DNA of 25,729 nt from a virus (Duplodnaviria > Heunggongvirae > Uroviricota > Caudoviricetes): positions 1 through 25,729 of the IMG/VR virus record IMGVR_UViG_2585427783_000006. One strand, written 5' to 3'. The notes beneath the pieces were generated by a model. The model saw only the letters and a program-made list of their open reading frames with translations. It did no database searches and had not been told where the DNA came from. Position 1 is the first letter of the stretch, and each line of letters starts with the position of its first letter. Below, piece by piece: positions 1,428 through 17,577 of this stretch. The position numbers and the translations under genes are program-made.

Positions 1428-1453
1428 TTATCTAAAACCTCGGTTTACAGGAA
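1428..1453. other. Inversion crossover site (gix/pix-like), left
   Basis: TTATCTAAAACCTCGGTTTACAGGAA matches the remembered Gin/Pin recombination site consensus; an inverted copy lies at 3208-3233. Confidence 0.75.
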
Positions 1454-1477
1454 ACGGTAAACAGGGCCAGGAACGCC

Positions 1478-2518
1478 GTGCAAAAGAATGGCGATACCTT
1501 GTCCGGTGGGCTTACTTTTGCAAACGACTCAATCCTTGCCTGGATTAGAAATACTGACTGGGCGAAGATTGGATTTAAAAATGATGCCGACAGCGATACT
1601 GATTCATACATGTGGTTTGAAACAGGCGACAACGGCAATGAATATTTCAAATGGAGAAGCCGCCATGGCACCACAACAAAAGACCTGATGAATCTTAAAT
1701 GGGGTGCTTTGTATGTTCTTGTTAAAGCCCTTTTCGGCAGTGAAGTAAAAATATCGACAGTCAATGCACTGAGGATTTTTAATTCATCCTTTGGTGCTAT
1801 TTTTCGCCGTTCTGAAGAACACCTGCATATCATCCCTACACGAGAAAATGAGGGTGAAAATGGAGATATTGGGCCATTAAGGCCATTCAACATCAACTTA
1901 AGAACAGGAGTTGTGTCTGTTGGTAATGGTGCCAGGATTGATGGCGGGCTGGCACTTGGCACGAATAACGCGTTGGGTGGGAACTCAATTGTTCTTGGTG
2001 ATAATGATACCGGATTTAAACAGAATGGTGATGGTATTCTTGATGTTTACGCTAATAGTCAGCGAGTATTCCGCTTTCAGAATGGAGTGGCTATTGCTTT
2101 TAAAAACATTCAGGCAGGTGATAGTAAAAAATTCTCGCTATCCAGCTCCAACAACTCCACGAAGAACGTAGGGTTTAATTTATGGGGCACTTCATCAAGA
2201 CCAACTGTTGCAGAGCTTGGTGATGATTCAGGCTGGCATTTCTATAGTCAGCGAAATACAGATAACTCAGTAACATTTGCTGTTAACGGTCAGATACAGC
2301 CCAGCAACTGGGGGAATTTTGATTCCCGCTATGTGAAAGATGTTCGCCTGGGTACGCGTGTTGTTCAATTGATGGCGCGTGGTGGTCGTTATGAAAAAGC
2401 CGGACACGCAATTACCGGATTAAGAATCATTGGTGAAGTAGATGGCGATGATGAAGCCATCTTCAGGCCAATACAAAAATACATCAATGGCACATGGTAT
2501 AACGTCGTACAGGTGTAA
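1478..2518 (+). CDS. stf: Side tail fibre variable C-terminal cassette (Sv'), promoterless; coding continues upstream to the crossover site
   Basis: QKNGDTLSGGLTFANDSILAWIRNTDWAKIGFKNDAD...GTWYNVVQV matches the C-terminal receptor-binding part of lambda Stf. It lies immediately after the left crossover site and inside the invertible segment. Confidence 0.8.
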   Translation: MQKNGDTLSGGLTFANDSILAWIRNTDWAKIGFKNDADSDTDSYMWFETGDNGNEYFKWRSRHGTTTKDLMNLKWGALYVLVKALFGSEVKISTVNALRIFNSSFGAIFRRSEEHLHIIPTRENEGENGDIGPLRPFNINLRTGVVSVGNGARIDGGLALGTNNALGGNSIVLGDNDTGFKQNGDGILDVYANSQRVFRFQNGVAIAFKNIQAGDSKKFSLSSSNNSTKNVGFNLWGTSSRPTVAELGDDSGWHFYSQRNTDNSVTFAVNGQIQPSNWGNFDSRYVKDVRLGTRVVQLMARGGRYEKAGHAITGLRIIGEVDGDDEAIFRPIQKYINGTWYNVVQV

Positions 2519-2521
2519 TTT

Positions 2522-3049
2522 ATGCAGCATTTAAAAAATATTAAGTCTGGAAATCCAAAAACAAAAGAACAATATCAGCTAACAAAGAATTTTGATGTTA
2601 TCTGGTTATATACAGAAGACGGTAAAAACTGGTATGAGGAAGTGAAAAACTTTCAGCCAGACACAATAAAGATTGTTTACGATGCAAATAATATTATTGT
2701 CGCCATCACCAAAGATGCCTCCACGCTTAACCCTGAAGGTTATAGCGTCGTTGAGGTTCCAGATATTACAGCCAACCGCCGCGCTGATGATTCCGGTAAG
2801 TGGATGTTTAGGGACGGAGCTGTGGTTAAACGGATTTATACGGCAGACGAGCAACAACAACAGGCCGAATCACAAAAGGCCGCATTGCTTTCCGAAGCTG
2901 AATCAGTCATCCAACCGCTGGAACGCGCTGTCAGGCTGAATATGGCAACAGACGAGGAACGCACACGACTGGAAGCATGGGAACGCTACAGTGTTCTGGT
3001 CAGCCGTGTGGATACGGCAAATCCTGAATGGCCACAAAAACCAGAGTAA
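2522..3049 (+). CDS. tfa: Tail fibre assembly protein Tfa, 175 aa
   Basis: Directly follows the Sv' cassette; Tfa-like C-terminus ([32 protein letters not shown]). Confidence 0.8.
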
Positions 3050-5037
3050 AAATTAAGGCCCGATGTCCAGACCTGACTATCGCCACCAATATTCAGCCAT
3101 GAGCTATATGCGCGGCAGGCACCAATATTTTTGGTGAAGGTATCTTTTCCTGGAATATCTGCGCCGTTCTGGTTTTTCTGTAATGCGCCAGAAGCCTGAC
3201 TTACCGTTTCCTGTAAACCGAGGTATTCGATAACAGCGGCAACGGTCGATTTCGCAAGAATATCCCGCCCGACTTTTGTCAGGGTTGCCAGGCTGGCGAC
3301 ATCATTCCCCGTAAAATACGGAAACCTGTCTGCCGCAGTAGCAAGCCCGGCCAGCGCCGTCAGGGTGGCATCTTTCGGTTGCTTACCCGCAAGCGCGTTA
3401 GTCATGGTGGTCGCAAAATTCGGGTCGTTTCCCAGCGCCGCCGCCAGCTCGTTCAGCGTATTCAGTGCGTCAGGCGACGAGTCTACAAGTGCGGCAATCG
3501 CGGCCATCACATAAGCCGTGCTTGCGATCTGAGTATTATTAGTCCCTTTTGGCGCAGTTGGCGTTGTTGGCGTTCCGGTCAGCGCAGGACTGTTTAAAGG
3601 CGCTTTCTTGTTCGTTTCATCCATTACCGCCTTAACCGCTTTTGGTGTCGCAGCCAGCGTTTCAGACGGGCTGTTAGTGGCGCTACTGAGCTGAACTATC
3701 CCTTTTCGTGCCGTCGTTGCATCCTGAGCGGTATATTTTGCGTTAGCAAGGTCATATGCTGCCTTTACTGCCTTTGGTGTTGCCGCCAGTGACTCGGAAG
3801 TGCTGTTGGTCGCACTGCTGAGCTGAACCACACCTTTTTTCGTCGTGCTCGCATCTTCCAGAGATACGGCATCAGCAATATCCTCTGCCCGTTTTGCTGC
3901 TGTTTCGGCACGCGTTGCCGCGGATTCAGCAGCAACTTTGCTCTGAGATGCAGCCGTCGCACTGCCTGCCGCCTCTGATGCTTTCGTTGTTGCTGTCGTG
4001 GCACTACCTTTCGCTGCTGACGCTTGTCTGGTCGCCTCATCTTTTGAAGCAGACGCAGATGATGCCGATGACGCCGCTGAACCAGCGGACGATGCGGCTG
4101 CCGCCTTAGAGGAAGCAGCATTGTCTGCTGAAGTCTTTGCATTTGTTTCAGAGGTTTTTGCTGCAGAAGCAGACCTCGCTGCTGCAGTGGCTTGCTTAGT
4201 GGCTTCGCCAGCCTTCGTTGTGGCTGTTGAAGCGGATGATGCGGCGCTTTCTGCCGATTTTCCGGCGGCGGTGGCACTGGCTGAGGCCTGCCCGGCACTT
4301 GTTGACGCGGCACTGGCCGACGATGCAGCCGCTGTTTTTGAACCTGCCGCAGCTGAGGCACTCTGTGCTGCTGCCGTTTCAGAAGACTTAGCGTTTGTCT
4401 CAGACGTCTTTGCCGCCTTCGCGGAATTTCCTGCCGCCGTTGCCGAGGAAGCTGCACTACTGGCACTTGATGATGCATTCGTTTCTGATGATTTCGCTGC
4501 CTCTTTTGAGGCCGCCGCCCCCCGTGCCGAGGTGGCAGCTTCTGACGCCTTCGTGGTCGCTGTGGATGCAGAAGTGGCTGCCGATTTTTGTGATGCTGCG
4601 GCATTCGTTTCTGACGTTTTCGCGGCACTGGCGCTGGTAGCTGCCGCGCTTTTTGATGACTCTGCAGCAGCAGCACTTTTCGCTGCTTCACTGGCCTTTG
4701 TCGATGCCGTTCCTGCGCTGGAAGACGCTGACTGAGCCGACGACGCGGCCTGTCCGGCTGACGTGCTGGCTGCGCGTGCTGAGCCTGCAGCATCAGTCGC
4801 ATGGGTTGCCGCCTCACGGGCTGATGTGCTGGCATCACTGGCTGACTTCTTCGCGGCTGCCGTGTTCTGTGCCACTGCGGACGCGTTACGCGCCACCTCT
4901 TCCACCATCAGTTCAAAACGGCGCAGTGCCTCCGGACGGGCATCATCCTCCGTCATGGCACCGAGAAAATCATTCAGCGTACCGGGTCGGGAATCTTCAT
5001 ACACGGTGATGGTCCCGGCATGTGACGGCGGGAATCC
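2986..5037 (-). pseudogene. stf: Side tail fibre Stf constant region, N-terminally truncated by the J-stf deletion and currently joined to a non-homologous C-terminal stub
   Basis: GFPPSHAGTITVYEDS...long Ala/Ser-rich repeats...AVIEYLGLQETV matches lambda Stf from about residue 60 to the crossover point. After the crossover the frame reads antisense through the tfa 3' end. Confidence 0.8.
3208..3233. other. Inversion crossover site (gix/pix-like), right, inside the stf reading frame
   Basis: TTCCTGTAAACCGAGGTATTCGATAA is the inverted partner of 1428-1453 (16 bp identical in one half-site). It encodes ...IEYLGLQE... at the constant/variable junction of the tail fibre. Confidence 0.75.
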
Positions 5038-12041: not shown

Positions 12042-12052
12042 ACATCCCCCTT

Positions 12053-12406
12053 TCAGCGGCGACGGTTAACGGCAGGCGGTACGCCCCGCCCAAGCCAGAG
12101 ATGACAGCTTCCGCCATCATCCGGCGAAATCCGGTCTATCCAGAAGTTTTCCTCACCGATGGTCAGCGTGTCGCCGCGCCGCAGCTGCCGCACATCATCA
12201 GTCCGGACAAACAGGGACGGGCTGGAGCCTTCAACGCGCACGCCCTGTCCGGCATAGCTGATATTTTCAGGGTCATCAAAAACACCACGTATCACAGCAC
12301 CGGACTGCTCACCGGATGTCATGGTGGCTGACGTTCCCATGTACCCGCGTATCGTTTCATCGGCGCAGGCAATGGCAGCATCGAACAGGTTATCGAAATC
12401 AGCCAC
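12053..12406 (-). CDS. FII: Head-tail joining protein FII, 117 aa
   Basis: MADFDNLFDAAIACADETIRGYMGTSATMTSGEQSGAVIRGVFDDPENISYAGQGVRVEG... lambda FII-like. Confidence 0.8.
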   Translation of the reverse strand: MADFDNLFDAAIACADETIRGYMGTSATMTSGEQSGAVIRGVFDDPENISYAGQGVRVEGSSPSLFVRTDDVRQLRRGDTLTIGEENFWIDRISPDDGGSCHLWLGRGVPPAVNRRR

Positions 12407-12417
12407 AGCGCCTCCCG

Positions 12418-12813
12418 TTATTGCATTCTGGCCAGGCCACGTTCTGTCATTTCGGCTGCCACACCGGCAGAGACACGAAACGCCGTTCCCGGCAGCACAA
12501 ATGCCACAGGTTCATCCCGCGTGGCGTGAAGTGCATCGGTATGCAGCGTCACCAGTGCCACAACCGTGACCAGAGCAGCCGTATCAGTCACGGTATCCGT
12601 CTGTGCTGATACCACCTCATTTTCATGTCCGGTCAGCGAATTTTCCGGGCTGACAGACGTGTCCTGACCGGCTGCGTCATCCGTGTCATCAAGCTCCTCT
12701 TCCAGCTCTGCCACACGGAGCGCCAGTTCTTCTTTCGTCCCCGTCAGGCTGACATCACGGTTCAGTTGCTCACCCAGCGACCGGAGACGGGCAATCAGTT
12801 CATCTTTCGTCAT
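12418..12813 (-). CDS. FI: DNA packaging protein FI, 131 aa
   Basis: MTKDELIARLRSLGEQLNRDVSLTGTKEELALRVAELEEELDD... lambda FI-like. Start at the ATG at 12813, preceded by a GGAGGAG Shine-Dalgarno sequence. Confidence 0.8.
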   Translation of the reverse strand: MTKDELIARLRSLGEQLNRDVSLTGTKEELALRVAELEEELDDTDDAAGQDTSVSPENSLTGHENEVVSAQTDTVTDTAALVTVVALVTLHTDALHATRDEPVAFVLPGTAFRVSAGVAAEMTERGLARMQ

Positions 12814-12854
12814 GGACTCCTCCACAGAGAGACAATGGCCCCGAAGGGCCATGA

Positions 12855-13880
12855 TTACGCCAGTTGAACGGACACGAACTCATCAGGATCAGCCAGCAGC
12901 ATCAGCGGTGCTGACTGAATCATGGTGAACTCTCGCGCCGGATCGCCGGATGTCTTCCAGTTTTTCGGATAACGGGGAGACGCATTAATACCCTCACTCA
13001 ATGCATCCGCATCCTGAATACAGCCATAGGTGCGCAGACCGCGTGCATGAGTGTTCCCCAGCACCATCGTGTTGTCCGGCAGGAAGTTCTTTTTGACGCC
13101 GTTTTCCACGTACTGTCCGGAATACACGACGATGGCCACATCGCCATACATTCCCTTATAAGACACCGCTTTGCCCAGGTCTTTTACCGCTGTCTCCAGT
13201 TCGGAATGAGAGCCGCGACGGGTATCCAGCTTCTCCCTGACGGCTTTGAAGGAACGGAACAGCGCCCAGCCTTTCGGGTCAAACACGATGATATTCACCA
13301 CGCCGCTGGCGTTCAGCGCGTAGGCTTCGATATCGTCGGTCGGGTCATACGTGGACTTGTCACGCTTGCTCCACTCCGTGCCGCCGGACTGCGTGATGTT
13401 GTTCGCCGCACTGCGGCCCATATCCACCTCGACCGGATCGAAGGCTTCACCGGTCATGGTGTATTTGCCCTTGAGCACGGCAGAAACGGCCTGCATCTCT
13501 TCGACCTGAGCAATGGCCTGCTCTTCGTCACGCATGTTCTGCATGATGATGCGACGGCGGCGGTAAGCCGGGTCCGCCAGATTCTGTGGATCTTCATCCG
13601 GCAGGCGACGCAGGGTCATCTGCGGATTCACCTCATGCTTCGGCTTGACATATCCCGGCGTAAATTCGGAGGTGGAGCCGCCACGGGAGCGGATAACCTC
13701 ACCGGAAACAATCGGCGAAACGTACAGCGCCATATTTACCAATCCCGGAATTTGTGAGAGATAGACTTTCTCCGTGGTGAAGGGATAGCTTTCACGGAAA
13801 AAGAGACGCAGAAACAGCGGATCAAACTTAAATTTCTGCTCATTTGCCGCCAGCAGCTGGGCGGTTGTGTACATCGACAT
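12855..13880 (-). CDS. E: Major capsid protein E, 341 aa
   Basis: MSMYTTAQLLAANEQKFKFDPLFLRLFFRESYPFTTEKVYLSQIPGLVNMALYVSPIVSGEVIRSRGGSTSEFTPGYVKPKHEV... near-identical to remembered lambda E. Start at the ATG at 13880. Confidence 0.9.
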   Translation of the reverse strand: MSMYTTAQLLAANEQKFKFDPLFLRLFFRESYPFTTEKVYLSQIPGLVNMALYVSPIVSGEVIRSRGGSTSEFTPGYVKPKHEVNPQMTLRRLPDEDPQNLADPAYRRRRIIMQNMRDEEQAIAQVEEMQAVSAVLKGKYTMTGEAFDPVEVDMGRSAANNITQSGGTEWSKRDKSTYDPTDDIEAYALNASGVVNIIVFDPKGWALFRSFKAVREKLDTRRGSHSELETAVKDLGKAVSYKGMYGDVAIVVYSGQYVENGVKKNFLPDNTMVLGNTHARGLRTYGCIQDADALSEGINASPRYPKNWKTSGDPAREFTMIQSAPLMLLADPDEFVSVQLA

Positions 13881-14248
13881 AAAAAAATCCCGTAAAAAAA
13901 GCCGCACACCAGCGATGCAATATCCTGCTGGTGGATGAACGACAGAATCTTCACCGACACCACCGATACCAGCACCGCACACAGCGCATCTGCCGATGTA
14001 CCGTCATACCCTGTTTTTGATGCAATCCAGGCTGACAGCACACGCGCTCCCAGCACGCCGACAATAAACGACACCAGAAAATGCGCCACCACGCGCCAGA
14101 CTGAAAGTGACTGCGGCATCGTTGCCACAAATAACGCCCCGGCGAACGCGCCAAACACAATCCCGAAATCCATCCCGGTAAACAGCCCGAATACCGTCGC
14201 GCCACCCAGCGCCGCAGCCGTGCCGGAACCGGATAAGGGTTCAGACAT
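13736..14248 (-). CDS. Predicted 3-TM membrane protein (holin-like?); its 3' end reads into the E start region and is probably disrupted
   Basis: MSEPLSGSGTAAALGGATVFGLFTGMDFGIVFGAFAGALFVA... has three hydrophobic helices in the first ~125 aa. The last ~45 codons are low-complexity (CRCTQPPSCWRQ...) and overlap the E start by about 145 nt. Confidence 0.45.
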   Translation of the reverse strand: MSEPLSGSGTAAALGGATVFGLFTGMDFGIVFGAFAGALFVATMPQSLSVWRVVAHFLVSFIVGVLGARVLSAWIASKTGYDGTSADALCAVLVSVVSVKILSFIHQQDIASLVCGFFYGIFLCRCTQPPSCWRQMSRNLSLIRCFCVSFSVKAIPSPRRKSISHKFRDW

Positions 14249-14340
14249 ACTTCCTCCTGAAAATAAAAAAAGGGCCACCAGCGACCCGTAAAAAAACACC
14301 CCGTCAAAGGCACCCGCAGATGCCTTTTGTGTGATGTTAT

Positions 14341-14493
14341 TCAGATTTTCGCAGTAAAGGCCGGAGCACGATCAGCGCCATCGCCACCAGCACACCATCT
14401 GCCAGCACTGACATCAGTCGTCCGGTGAAATCCACCATCACTACCAGAAACAACAGGATGACAGCCAGCACAAGGCGCGCACTTTTCACAGGT
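14341..14493 (-). CDS. Possible small hydrophobic protein (~50 aa, GTG start overlapping the upstream stop)
   Basis: My translation gives VKSARLVLAVILLFLVVMVDFTGRLMSVLADGVLVAMALIVLRPLLRKSE; the GTG overlaps the TGA of the 74-aa ORF (cTGTGa). The ORF track lists a different frame of this region. Confidence 0.3.
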   Translation of the reverse strand, partial: TCEKCAPCAGCHPVVSGSDGGFHRTTDVSAGRWCAGGDGADRAPAFTAKI

Positions 14494-14710
14494 ACTGCTC
14501 CAGCGGCAACTGCAGCGCCTGCGCAATTTTCTTCAGTTGCGCTTCTTCTTCCTGACCGATACCGTCCTGGTCAGCGATATCCAGACACAGACACAGCACA
14601 TTCACAGTATCATCAGTATCTGCAACATCAGTCAGCTGACGAAGGGCTTCAGCATTAGCAGAACGCGGTGGCGCTTCATAACGGGCGCGGATATGAAAAA
14701 GGCCCGCCAA
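14486..14710 (-). CDS. Hypothetical acidic protein, 74 aa
   Basis: ORF starts 23 nt downstream of a tRNA 3' end; no recognised family. Confidence 0.3.
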   Translation of the reverse strand: MAGLFHIRARYEAPPRSANAEALRQLTDVADTDDTVNVLCLCLDIADQDGIGQEEEAQLKKIAQALQLPLEQYL

Positions 14711-14732
14711 AGCGAGCCTGGAAAAATAAGCG

Positions 14733-14809
14733 TGGCGCGTTGTACTGGATTCGAACCAGTGACCGATTGCTTAGAAGGCAATTGCTCTGTCCGGCTGAGC
14801 TAACAACGC
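14733..14809 (-). tRNA. argN: tRNA-Arg (anticodon UCU; argN/argU-like)
   Basis: Folded by hand: 7-bp acceptor stem GCGTTGT/ACAACGC, D-arm GCTC/GAGC, anticodon loop CTTCTAA, T-loop GGTTCGAATCC, 3' GCCA. Confidence 0.85.
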
Positions 14810-14822
14810 ATAATGCAGATAA

Positions 14823-14899
14823 TGGATTGCCATCGGGGACCCGAGCCCCACACAGCCAGTTTCGAAAGCTGGCACTCTCTGTCGATGAGCTAATGGCGG
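14823..14899 (-). tRNA. Degenerate tRNA-like element, possibly argO-like tRNA-Arg (UCG)
   Basis: Sits in the 97-bp gap between two good tRNAs. It has an anticodon-type stem-loop (CCAGC-TTTCGAA-ACTGG) and a GC-rich T-like stem, but two mismatches at the acceptor end and a non-canonical T-loop (CTCGGGT). Confidence 0.3.
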
Positions 14900-14906
14900 T
14901 ATGTGA

Positions 14907-14982
14907 TGGTGGCCCTTGCTGGATTTGAACCAGCGACCTGGCGATTATGAGTCGCTCGCTCTCACCACTGAGCTAAAGGGCC
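14907..14982 (-). tRNA. ileZ: tRNA with CAU anticodon, ileX/ileZ-like (tRNA-Ile2 reading AUA; could alternatively be tRNA-Met)
   Basis: Sequence closely resembles remembered E. coli ileX. Acceptor stem GGCCCTT/AAGGGCC, anticodon loop CTCATAA, T-loop GGTTCAAATCC, CCA encoded. Confidence 0.8.
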
Positions 14983-15031
14983 GGGAGCAGAATAATAATG
15001 GTGCGTAATTAATTCTGCAATCTCATCCGTT

Positions 15032-16081
15032 TCAAACGATTAAATCCTGAACTTCCCTGACTGTCTGTTCAAAACGTCCTGTCTCCAGCTCAACACCAAT
15101 CGCACAACGCCCCAGTGCCATCGCCGCTTTTACCGTTGAACCTGAACCCATAAAAAAATCTGCAACCAGGTCTCCCGGACGACTGCTCGCGTTGATTATC
15201 TGCTGCAGCATTTCTGCCGGTTTTTCGCACGGATGTTTTCCTGGATAGTACTGCACCGGTTTATGCGTCCAGACATCGGTGTACGGAACCTGCGCCGTCA
15301 CACCGAAATACCGCCGCAAATTTTTATATTCACTCAGCAGTTCCGTGTACTGCCGGTTCAGCTCACTGTATGTGCTGACCAGCTGGTGGTGTGGCTTTTC
15401 CAGTTCCCCGCGCTGATGTTTTTCTGCCGCAACACGCGCAAACAACGCCTGCAATTTGTTGTAATCACCCTCGTTCGGTAACTGCCACTGACTGGTACCA
15501 AACCAGTGCGAAGCCATGTTTTTCTTTCCGGTGGCTTCCGCTATCTGTTTTGACGTTATTCCCAGTGATTTACGCGCATCACGAAAGTAAGAAATCAGCG
15601 GGGCCATGACGTGCTGTTTTAGCTCGCGCCCCTGTGCCACATAGCCATCATCTTTCGGGCGATACGGTCCCTGATAATGTTCTGCAAACAGAATGCGCTC
15701 TGTTGCCGGAAAATACGCCCGCAGACTTTCCTTATTGCACCCGTTCCAGCGTCCGGACGGCTTCGCCCAGATAATGTGGTTCAGCACATTAAAGCGCTCA
15801 CGCATCATGATTTCGGTGTCAGATGCCAGGCGATGACCACAGAACAGGTAAAGACTTCCGGTAGGCTTCAGTACCCGCCAGAACTGCGCCAGACACTGGT
15901 CCAGCCATTTCAGGTAATCATCGTCGCCCTCCCACTGGTTATCCCAGCCCTCGGGCTTCACTTTAAAGTATGGCGGGTCTGTGACTATCAGATCGACAGA
16001 ATTTTCCGGTAAGGTCTGGATAAACTCCAGGCAATCAGCGTTGATTAACTCACAACTGGATATTTTTACAGTATTAATCAT
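15032..16081 (-). CDS. Orphan DNA methyltransferase (N6-adenine or N4-cytosine, beta-class), 349 aa
   Basis: DPPY motif IV near the N-terminus (LIVTDPPYF) and motif I (FFMGSGST) near the C-terminus. No adjacent restriction endonuclease gene. Confidence 0.8.
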   Translation of the reverse strand: MINTVKISSCELINADCLEFIQTLPENSVDLIVTDPPYFKVKPEGWDNQWEGDDDYLKWLDQCLAQFWRVLKPTGSLYLFCGHRLASDTEIMMRERFNVLNHIIWAKPSGRWNGCNKESLRAYFPATERILFAEHYQGPYRPKDDGYVAQGRELKQHVMAPLISYFRDARKSLGITSKQIAEATGKKNMASHWFGTSQWQLPNEGDYNKLQALFARVAAEKHQRGELEKPHHQLVSTYSELNRQYTELLSEYKNLRRYFGVTAQVPYTDVWTHKPVQYYPGKHPCEKPAEMLQQIINASSRPGDLVADFFMGSGSTVKAAMALGRCAIGVELETGRFEQTVREVQDLIV

Positions 16082-16231
16082 AGATCAATAAGCACTTCTC
16101 TGATAGGCTCATACCGCTTTTGCGCAAAGCAGATGGGCCTGAGGTTTGCTTGTGACCCCAACGCATGAGCAGATGGCTGGCAGGTGCCGCTAACACCCCC
16201 CAGCCGCCCATTACCACAAATTAAAAAGCCT

Positions 16232-16411
16232 TCACTGCGGAAGGCGTCTGTAACAACCGAACTGATAATCTGCCAGACCCGCCATAACAAGCTGAGTCAG
16301 TATTAACTGGCAGCGTTCGCGTGAAAGGTAAGTATTCTGCGCAATTTCCCCGACGGTCGCCGGTTCGGTGATGCTTAATTCATTAAACACCACTCTGGCG
16401 GTTTCGGTCAT
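16232..16411 (-). CDS. Hypothetical small protein, first gene after tR'; start uncertain (ORF extends to 16552)
   Basis: A CAGGA Shine-Dalgarno sequence precedes the ATG at 16411 (MTETARVVFNELSITEPATVGEIAQNTYLSRERCQLILTQL...). Confidence 0.35.
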   Translation of the reverse strand: MTETARVVFNELSITEPATVGEIAQNTYLSRERCQLILTQLVMAGLADYQFGCYRRLPQ

Positions 16412-16550
16412 ATCCTGCTGTTTTAGCATGCCTTTTTCCCTTTCCCAGTTAACGTGACATACCAATACCTCTTGTCGAAAAAGCCAGCAAGCTGAAAGAC
16501 CGGCATTCGCAACCACCAGCGCATTTAACGTCCTGTACCGCTTTTCGGGC

Positions 16551-16578
16551 ACAAAAAAACCCGCATAAAGCGGGTTCT
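16551..16578 (-). terminator. Rho-independent terminator, candidate tR' (target of Q antitermination)
   Basis: On the minus strand: AACCCGC-TTTAT-GCGGGTT hairpin followed by TTTTTTT, about 85-110 nt downstream of the Q stop. Confidence 0.7.
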
Positions 16579-16660
16579 TTCAGGTGTCCATGTCTGCTAT
16601 TCGCCTCGCGGTATAGCTTTGCGAAGCGTAGCTGGATTGAAACAGTTTATGCGTAAAAAA

Positions 16661-17215
16661 TCAAGACATTTTTTGAGCAAACGATTCTCGCATAGGGATG
16701 TATAGCGCATATTCAGCAACAGCTAACCAATTAGCAATTCGCTTTTCGCATGTACTAAAACACCATTCCGGGTGCACCTCATTCAACAATTCAGCCATTT
16801 TGCGTTTACTCATCCCCCGCCCTTCGTACCTTTGCCGCAGGATATCAATCAATCCAGGATAACGTGCAAGCGCTTTACTTATCACCCCATCAATGCGTAA
16901 CGCCTCTGCATCAGTACAGTGAGACAACCAGCTCTTCTGTCTGCCAGCGATCATCTCTCGCAAGAATGCTTCCAGCTCTGGTTTATCAATCCCTGACTCC
17001 CTGATTCTACGCAGGGCTTCATTGATTGCGGTTTTTGTCAGTTTTTTGGATGCCAGCAACTGATTGAACATATTTCCTGGTTTGCCACCACCTATATACG
17101 ACCAACGCCCCCACATCCGTAATTTCCCCTGGATCCAGACGGCTTCCAGCGTTTTTAGACGTAAATGCTCGCCGCTTTTGCCTGTAATTTCCGGGTATAT
17201 CATATTTACGATCAC
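16661..17215 (-). CDS. Q: Antitermination protein Q (late gene regulator), 184 aa
   Basis: Immediately downstream of rusA with start/stop overlap, as in other lambdoid prophages; followed by a promoter-like region and terminator. Family assignment from synteny and weak motif resemblance (KLRMWGRW). Confidence 0.6.
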   Translation of the reverse strand: MIVNMIYPEITGKSGEHLRLKTLEAVWIQGKLRMWGRWSYIGGGKPGNMFNQLLASKKLTKTAINEALRRIRESGIDKPELEAFLREMIAGRQKSWLSHCTDAEALRIDGVISKALARYPGLIDILRQRYEGRGMSKRKMAELLNEVHPEWCFSTCEKRIANWLAVAEYALYIPMRESFAQKMS

Positions 17216-17577
17216 TCACTCTCAATTTTGTAAATCTTCACGCCCAGCCGCCCCCCAGGAACGCGCTGACCGCGCACAATATTGATTTCATCAAACTGCT
17301 CGTCGTCTATGAGAAGTCCGGCATGCGTCAGCGCATCCAGTGGTGCTTTCAGGATATTGTCCAGGTCACGACGACGTTTATCCGGTGGCTCTGCAATAAT
17401 CTTTATCGCCAGCCTTCCGGACAGGTTTAATTTCAGCCGCTGCTGGCGAACAATAAGCGCCACATCACGGCGATAACGCTCACCGGCTTTTGATACAAAA
17501 TATGTGCTGCCACGACGTCGCCAGTAAGTGTTCACCGTTGGCGGGTAAGGCAAAACAAATTCTATGCGTTCAGTCAT
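17212..17577 (-). CDS. rusA: Holliday junction resolvase RusA, 121 aa
   Basis: Size and motifs (PPDKRRRDLDNILKAPLDALTHAGLLIDDEQ) match the RusA family. Confidence 0.8.
   Translation of the reverse strand: MTERIEFVLPYPPTVNTYWRRRGSTYFVSKAGERYRRDVALIVRQQRLKLNLSGRLAIKIIAEPPDKRRRDLDNILKAPLDALTHAGLLIDDEQFDEINIVRGQRVPGGRLGVKIYKIESE

Follow-up and report, generated by a model that had tools for sequence, protein, structure and literature searches.

A probable argN pseudogene between two functional-looking tRNA genes in the ileZ-argN-argO island of a defective Escherichia prophage

Main finding

The tRNA cluster analyzed here lies in a window of 25,729 nucleotides (the window being the whole stretch of viral DNA that was analyzed) and is very probably a late-operon island in which two functional-looking tRNA genes enclose an argN pseudogene, the latter being an old allele moved by recombination. 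Judging by homology and gene order, the cluster belongs to the ileZ-argN-argO islands already known from lambdoid prophages of Escherichia, with the middle element (hereafter psi-argN) as its decayed middle gene. This middle element was read as an argN pseudogene that is almost certainly non-functional. It combined homology to argN at the orthologous position with apparently relaxed constraint, the two features by which a tRNA pseudogene is recognized; evidence for the relaxed constraint was moderately strong, given the small sample.

Layout of the island and its outer tRNAs

Across the 25.7 kb of the window, ARAGORN called two minus-strand tRNAs, and both exceeded the gathering score (29) of the Rfam tRNA model RF00005 (70.1 bits for the argO-type and 72.5 bits for the ileZ-type tRNA). 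The interval between them was exactly 97 bp (14810-14906), in agreement with the sequence-only reading, made before any database search, which had described two well-formed tRNAs flanking a 97-bp element. The units followed each other in tandem on one strand, in the order CAU - UCG - UCU, with spacers 7 nt and 13 nt long between them:

14907-14982, minus strand: ileZ-type tRNA gene, anticodon CAU, CCA encoded (ARAGORN, Rfam, PGAP)
14900-14906, minus strand: 7-nt spacer between ileZ and the argN relic, UCACAUA (sequence and alignment)
14823-14899, minus strand: psi-argN, 77-nt decayed tRNA-Arg(UCG) gene, CCA retained (sub-threshold Rfam match, argN homology)
14810-14822, minus strand: 13-nt spacer between the argN relic and argO, UUAUCUGCAUUAU (sequence and alignment)
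14733-14809, minus strand: argO-type tRNA-Arg gene, anticodon UCU, CCA encoded (ARAGORN, Rfam, PGAP)

In the alignment, the ileZ-type tRNA was identical to ileZ of Stx2a_F765, and its exact sequence was found in 116 of the 124 sampled loci (119 IMG/VR loci, the window and four reference loci). The argO-type tRNA showed a single difference from Stx2a argO, at position 37. The 13-nt spacer was identical to that of Stx2a and differed at 4 positions from that of strain IrN.

The CAU tRNA was labelled Met by ARAGORN, from the anticodon only, and tRNA-Ile by PGAP for the identical sequence in RefSeq, the tRNA caller of PGAP presumably being tRNAscan-SE with isotype models. It has C4-G69 and C5-G68 pairs, which we take to be determinants for TilS, and was read as a tRNA-Ile2 that would decode AUA after putative lysidine modification. 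The argO-type tRNA is predicted to read AGA, and AGG weakly. As far as can be judged from their sequences, both outer tRNAs look functional.

Prophage context

The region 12043-25729 was 99.99% identical to a prophage located next to potB in the enterotoxigenic E. coli (ETEC) strain E1433. Along the minus strand, ileZ was preceded by RusA, a DUF1133/Q-like antiterminator, a small ORF and an N6/N4 DNA methylase, in that order, and past argO came a terminator-like hairpin, a small truncated ORF, the DUF3927 gene and a holin gene, also truncated. Toxin genes were lacking after argO, as had been noticed from the sequence at the outset. The elements bearing on transcription of the island were the following:

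15032-16081, minus strand: N6/N4 DNA methyltransferase gene, directly preceding the island (PF01555, E = 6.5e-45)
16661-17203, minus strand: DUF1133/Q-like antiterminator gene (PF06576, E = 5.9e-103; PF06530 Phage_antitermQ, 28.4 bits for a cut-off of 26)
14700-14719, minus strand: intrinsic-terminator-like hairpin, 13 nt past argO (consensus match only)

The hairpin at 14700-14719 consisted of 8 bp (6 of them G-C) closing a loop of 4 and followed by UUUUU. Because no sigma-70 promoter was detected for the island in a simple scan, its transcription unit was deduced from gene order. By this gene order the island would belong to a late, Q-dependent unit, and it occupies the site of stx in Stx phages.

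About 85 nt after the DUF1133 stop, at 16557-16575 on the minus strand, a strong hairpin with a T7 run behind it was recognized by eye and absent from the terminator scan; it is likely a tR'-like terminator. Two different Q-type antiterminator genes were present 4 kb apart, at 16661-17203 (DUF1133/Q-like) and 21094-21618 (PF06530), with inserted plus-strand DUF6731 and hypothetical genes between them, and the late-regulatory region looks composite.

The window prophage was of the ETEC type and defective. With strain 504838 as reference, 7.9 kb of its prophage was deleted, which joined the truncated holin gene to the capsid gene at 13902-13908, with a 7-bp overlap at the breakpoint, and removed the genes for endolysin, terminase, portal, protease and decoration. 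Frameshifts were present in the cro/cI-type gene and in a DUF4406 gene, and the left half of the window was rearranged relative to both 504838 and E1433. Within that half, a segment of the tail-fibre region (1428-3064) was inverted compared with E1433 and adjoined a small recombinase-family gene, an arrangement resembling an invertible switch of tail fibres (host range). A match to the Rfam family IS009 (129.2 bits, above its gathering score) was found at 41-244 on the minus strand, in a region of tail-fibre-assembly remnants. The segment 19075-19399 harbored the toxin gene hokD together with a full-length sok antisense RNA (RF01794, 108.7 bits, 19225-19399).

Known relatives of the island

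A 501-nt query taken around the cluster matched 289 phage records, nearly all from Stx-converting phages, and about 90% identity over 417 nt including the trio was obtained to 244 phage records. The Stx2a_F765 annotation names the three genes ileZ, argN and argO and places stx2A/B immediately after them, and the 933W record also annotates the homologous middle gene as argN. Three tRNAs have been described as adjoining stx2a (PMC7946995). The initial suggestion that the cluster mirrors an ileZ-argN-argO arrangement was therefore borne out by this identity and by the synteny with 933W-type phages.

The window shared with 933W and other Stx2 lambdoid phages (AF125520, AP012534) the gene order, the strand, spacers of 7-9 and 13 nt and the encoded CCA ends, as well as the position of the island after a Q-type antiterminator (and a methylase in several records) and before the lysis genes. 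Unlike in those phages, the middle gene of the window was decayed and fell below the tRNA threshold, the prophage itself was defective, and the hairpin, the truncated small ORF and the DUF3927 gene followed argO instead of stx.

Further relatives were found among non-STEC prophages, two of which were aligned (those of strains IrN and 203740, with three annotated tRNAs each). IrN (NZ_CP187535) displayed the same methylase-tRNA-DUF3927-holin context and matched the window at 99.4% identity over about 2.2 kb around the island, and 203740 displayed the same gene order with a more diverged methylase side. The difference resided in the middle, which in these prophages was a 56-bit, PGAP-annotated tRNA-Arg(UCG), the 97-bp middle differing from that of the window at 19 positions. 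Outside Escherichia, the island turned up among GTDB species representatives only in two doubtful MAG contigs.

Structure of the middle element

The ARAGORN run that the sequence-only reading had suggested called the two outer tRNAs in the window and none at the middle element, which was also missing from the whole-window search at the RF00005 gathering threshold. When the segment 14790-14930 (141 nt) was searched alone, the Rfam tRNA model matched the minus strand at 14826-14899 with 23.7 bits (E = 0.0037), below the 29-bit gathering threshold and far from a high-scoring canonical tRNA. Intact argN genes reached 56.0 bits in IrN and 54.8 bits in Stx2a with the same model, a common intermediate allele 43.4 bits, and the alleles closest to that of the window 26.4 bits (H10407) and 22.2 bits (MBT-5).

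Written by structural segments, the psi-argN RNA reads CCGCCAU UA GCUC AUCGACAGA GAGU G CCAGC UUUCGAA ACUGG in its first part and CUGUG UGGGG CUCGGGU CCCCG AUGGCAA U CCA in the remainder. Its anticodon loop UUUCGAA gives the anticodon UCG, which had at first been proposed only conditionally. The element retained, along with this anticodon, U33, a 7-nt anticodon loop, a 5-bp acceptor helix, the T-stem, the CCA end and a length of 77 nt, and its D and T stems pair, G-U wobbles included.

Mismatches affected the two outermost acceptor pairs (C1·A72 and C2·A71) and the anticodon stem (C31·A39), and the same three pairs were marked as non-standard by Rfam. The T-loop was CUCGGGU in place of UUCGAGU, corresponding to T54C and A58G with loss of the conserved T54-A58 pair. 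The D-loop (AUCGACAGA) was devoid of GG, so that G18G19, which contact the T-loop, were lost. The mismatched acceptor end and the non-canonical T-loop pointed out earlier were thus both recovered, with the tRNA-derived part of the 97-bp interval refined to 77 nt.

Overall, psi-argN departed from a canonical tRNA in its score, in the 7-bp acceptor stem and paired anticodon stem, and in the conserved tertiary nucleotides. The minimum-energy structure was still cloverleaf-like and four-way, and was not more stable than the folds of shuffled sequence (z = -0.40). From these features it appears very unlikely that psi-argN folds into the L-shape or is charged.

Homology and substitutions

In blastn searches the middle element aligned with annotated argN, including that of 933W and other Stx2 phages, over all 97 nt, at 84-87% identity (E ~1e-23) and in the same slot. 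A chance resemblance to a tRNA was considered and rejected: the E value of 0.0037 from Rfam would be unconvincing alone, though the homology to argN was unambiguous. The element is more than chance because of this homology and the conserved synteny, not because of the weak model score.

Aligned with Stx2a argN, psi-argN differed at 13 of 77 positions. The changes comprised G18A, G19C, one more in the D-loop, C25U, C32U, G39A, one in the variable loop, C49U, U54C, A58G, U63C, G71A and G72A. Transitions accounted for 11 of the 13, mostly from GC to AT (4 C>T and 3 G>A). Over the same four-way alignment (window, Stx2a_F765, IrN and 203740), ileZ showed 0 differences and argO 0-1. The view of the middle member as degenerate was upheld in the form of an argN homologue with 13 changes, a less decayed version of which (the H10407 allele) is still called by a lenient caller.

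Among the six stem substitutions, 3 keep the pairing through wobble and 3 break it, the same split that random transitions would give. Structure-preserving evolution of psi-argN therefore found no support in this 3:3 split or in the folding energy (z = -0.40), and no covariation was observed.

The window-type allele family and its distribution

The window-type allele family was detected in 87 of 5,426 complete E. coli genomes, its carriers including human and porcine ETEC, STEC of the O26/O111 type and the EPEC strain E2348/69. It consisted of five or six alleles with 11 derived changes common to all. The alleles of ETEC H10407, STEC MBT-5 and EPEC E2348/69 shared with the window these 11 changes, including both acceptor mismatches, C31·A39, T54C and A58G, and were likewise unannotated in RefSeq; they differed by 1-3 private changes each, the H10407 type keeping the D-loop GG. 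Private changes were G18A and C25U in the window (the latter turning a D-stem G-C pair into G-U), U55C in MBT-5 and E2348/69, G52A in locus L123 and a CCA end changed to CUA in locus L063. Damage continues to accumulate within the family, and ileZ and argO were invariant across its five aligned loci (including the window, H10407, MBT-5 and 7_11_88A).

Annotation of these alleles varied with the tool used. ARAGORN called the H10407-type and L123 alleles tRNA-Arg(tcg) and did not call the window and MBT-5 types, while RefSeq (PGAP) displayed three tRNAs at islands with intact argN and only two at those of the window-type family, with no psi-argN annotation in 60 carrier genomes among the matches listed. 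Counts of prophage tRNAs consequently depend on the caller, since some psi-argN relics are called by ARAGORN and none by PGAP. For the window, two annotated tRNAs with nothing in the gap between them is the correct annotation. RefSeq locus tags skip one number at psi-argN both in H10407 (RS06620 to RS06630) and in E2348/69 (RS06605 to RS06615), which suggests that an earlier annotation at this position was subsequently withdrawn.

Sequences resembling argN, with 80-90% identity to the element of the window, were found in about 1,460 genomes. No intermediate alleles occurred in the 90-95% identity band, both records in that band being E2348/69, with the same 77-nt core as MBT-5. The window-type allele was not found in deposited phage genomes, where the best match reached 87.6%. 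Searches with the gene names ileZ, argN and argO returned only noise, and no published description of the psi-argN allele was found, although well-studied genomes, H10407 and E2348/69 among them, have shown it for years.

Mosaic origin of the middle allele

The window and IrN shared a closely related block of 2.25 kb, in which the flanks were 99.4% identical and the middle 80%, with 19 differences in the 97-bp middle (20%) and 13 in the surrounding 2.15 kb (0.6%). Compared with H10407, 3 differences were counted in 77 nt and 15 in about 3.7 kb. The downstream flanks of the window-type allele were of at least two unrelated kinds, and intact, window-type or 80-nt alleles occurred on the same flank haplotypes, which constitutes a four-gamete violation. 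Simple decay in place since the split from relatives with intact argN was rejected on account of the contrast between 99.4% and 80% and of the shared flank haplotypes.

The most economical reading of these patterns is that psi-argN is an old allele which homologous recombination has passed from prophage to prophage. Homology arms for such exchange could be provided by the invariant flanking tRNA genes, 76-77 nt long, and conserved tRNA genes may in this way promote mosaicism between prophages. E. coli genomes carrying argN-like sequences had a median of 2 copies and up to 7, and partners for exchange are therefore available.

Local hypermutation, for instance by transcription-associated deamination in a strongly transcribed segment free of selection, could alternatively have produced the 13 changes in place, which would account for the approximately 30-fold excess of differences in the middle over the 2 kb of flanks, for the 11 transitions out of 13, mostly GC to AT, and for the 3 differences in 77 nt against 15 in about 3.7 kb in the comparison with H10407. 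This origin appears unlikely, given that the same allele occurs on at least two unrelated downstream flanks and that the same flanks carry intact alleles. Moreover, the changes were about equal on both strands (4 C>T and 3 G>A), and the excess relative to H10407 was not significant when only synonymous-like flank sites were counted as neutral.

Codon use and proposed working of the island

Codon counts, made on the 20 intact CDSs in 12053-25729, gave 14.2 ATA, 8.3 AGA, 6.8 AGG and 8.9 CGA per 1000. E. coli averages per 1000 are about 4-5 for ATA, 2-3 for AGA, 1-2 for AGG and 3.5-4 for CGA, so that the window uses these codons roughly two to four times as often. The enrichment was found mainly in regulatory genes upstream of the tRNAs, while the few late genes downstream were host-like. 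Concerning the earlier claim that the trio serves rare codons, the anticodons CAU, UCG and UCU were indeed present, and the role itself would follow from the codon counts and earlier literature.

By its position and by analogy with the Stx-phage literature, Q-mediated antitermination would allow the late transcript starting at pR' to run through the island. The ileZ and argO tRNAs would then be excised from this transcript and matured, the former reading AUA after lysidine formation and the latter AGA. AUA and AGA depend on scarce host tRNAs (ileX/ileY and argU), and both outer tRNAs would supplement these decoders for codons enriched about threefold in the regulatory genes of the prophage. 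The psi-argN relic is most likely cotranscribed and inert, and may keep some weak residual function.

CGA is read through inosine by the abundant, multi-copy host tRNA-Arg(ICG). Since CGA is already read in this way, selection on the middle slot would be weak, and this coverage by the host tRNA is probably the reason for the decay of argN. E. coli lacks a tRNA gene with the Watson-Crick anticodon for CGA, i.e., a UCG tRNA gene (PMC4032129, Table 1).

Possible retained functions of psi-argN

A tRNA-Arg(UCG) that is charged and serves on the ribosome in spite of its non-canonical acceptor end and T-loop would be consistent with the retained anticodon, U33, 7-nt anticodon loop, complete T-stem, CCA and 77-nt length, with the ARAGORN calls of tRNA-Arg(tcg) for the H10407 and L123 alleles, and with the persistence of the family in 87 genomes of several pathotypes. 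We regard it as very improbable, considering the two terminal C·A mismatches, C31·A39, the missing D-loop GG and the loss of the T54-A58 pair, together with a score of 23.7 bits against 55-56 for intact argN. Sister alleles also add U55C or lose the CCA end, PGAP annotates the gene in none of the 60 carrier genomes among the matches listed, and the fold was no more stable than that of shuffled sequence.

Psi-argN could also be kept as a tRNA-like RNA without decoding function, for instance as a folded spacer guiding RNase P/RNase E processing of both adjoining tRNAs or as a decoy for a host nuclease that targets tRNAs. Its window-type family was free of indels and its minimum-energy fold cloverleaf-like and four-way, the slot was never found deleted in at least 120 loci (though the search pattern demanded a gap of 85-115 nt), and the common 80-nt family in the same slot also keeps the acceptor and T stems. 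The absence of deletions was, however, imposed by the search pattern and carries no weight. Pairs showed neither covariation nor a bias toward preservation, damaging changes continue in the family, and we know of no mechanism that requires such a folded spacer. There is thus very little probability in a retained role of this kind, and an inert argN pseudogene is the preferred reading.

The middle slot across IMG/VR loci

Scanning IMG/VR with a pattern that fixed only the ileZ 3' end and the argO 5' end (exact matches over 22 nt in ileZ and 17 nt in argO, with a gap of 85-115 nt) returned at least 120 loci. Among the matches listed, the middle slot was occupied as follows:

43 of 120 loci (36%): middle slot flawless by canonical criteria
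24 of 120 loci: allele with acceptor mismatch, T-stem mismatch and A58G
7 of 120 loci: window type
33 of 120 loci: 80-nt element with replaced anticodon arm
13 of 120 loci: argN-like alleles with other defects

ARAGORN called a middle tRNA in 83 of the 120 loci listed. By the same criteria, 117 of 119 listed loci had an intact ileZ and 101 of 119 an intact argO, a comparison biased toward ileZ and argO by the anchoring of the pattern and drawn from IMG/VR entries that are not independent lineages. The contrast was large despite this bias, and the middle slot appears to be generally under weak selection. Lambdoid prophages of Escherichia thus keep their AUA and AGA decoders near-invariant, the CGA decoder between them being flawless in about one third of the loci sampled. 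Such a slot, in which at least two further degenerate forms occur, may be regarded as a natural experiment on which phage-borne tRNAs are kept by selection.

The least ordinary observation was made outside the window and concerns the 80-nt tRNA-like element in the argN slot (family C, e.g., L015:2716-2818), which the window does not carry. Its acceptor and T stems were intact, its anticodon arm was replaced by unrelated sequence, and its T-arm contained a run of G varying from 5 to about 14. Family C was present in 1,729 of 5,426 complete E. coli genomes; it had no Rfam match, was not called a tRNA, and was annotated in none of 15 genomes among the matches listed. It shares with psi-argN the location between ileZ and argO and the absence of a tRNA call, and its acceptor-stem sequence is that of argN; it differs from psi-argN in its replaced anticodon arm, variable T-arm G-run, lack of an Rfam match and much higher frequency. 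It is most improbable that the middle slot is a recombination cassette site maintaining non-decoding tRNA-like RNAs (the window-type relic and, above all, family C), which would then be kept as scaffolds for processing of the flanking tRNAs or as decoys or sensors for tRNA-targeting defence nucleases of the host.

The commonest argN allele type still called as a tRNA (L012, L021 and others) displayed mismatches in the acceptor stem (A6·A67) and the T-stem (A52·C62) as well as A58G and scored 43.4 bits, and many annotated argN genes may be impaired. In four IMG/VR loci, argO ended in ...CTTCTAAGCAGCTGTGGTTGCACTCC just past the anticodon loop and continued into unrelated sequence, so that the tRNA may have suffered a deletion or may contain a recombination breakpoint. 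At one further IMG/VR locus (L026, allele m19), the middle anticodon was UCU instead of UCG, and the gene would be a second AGA reader.
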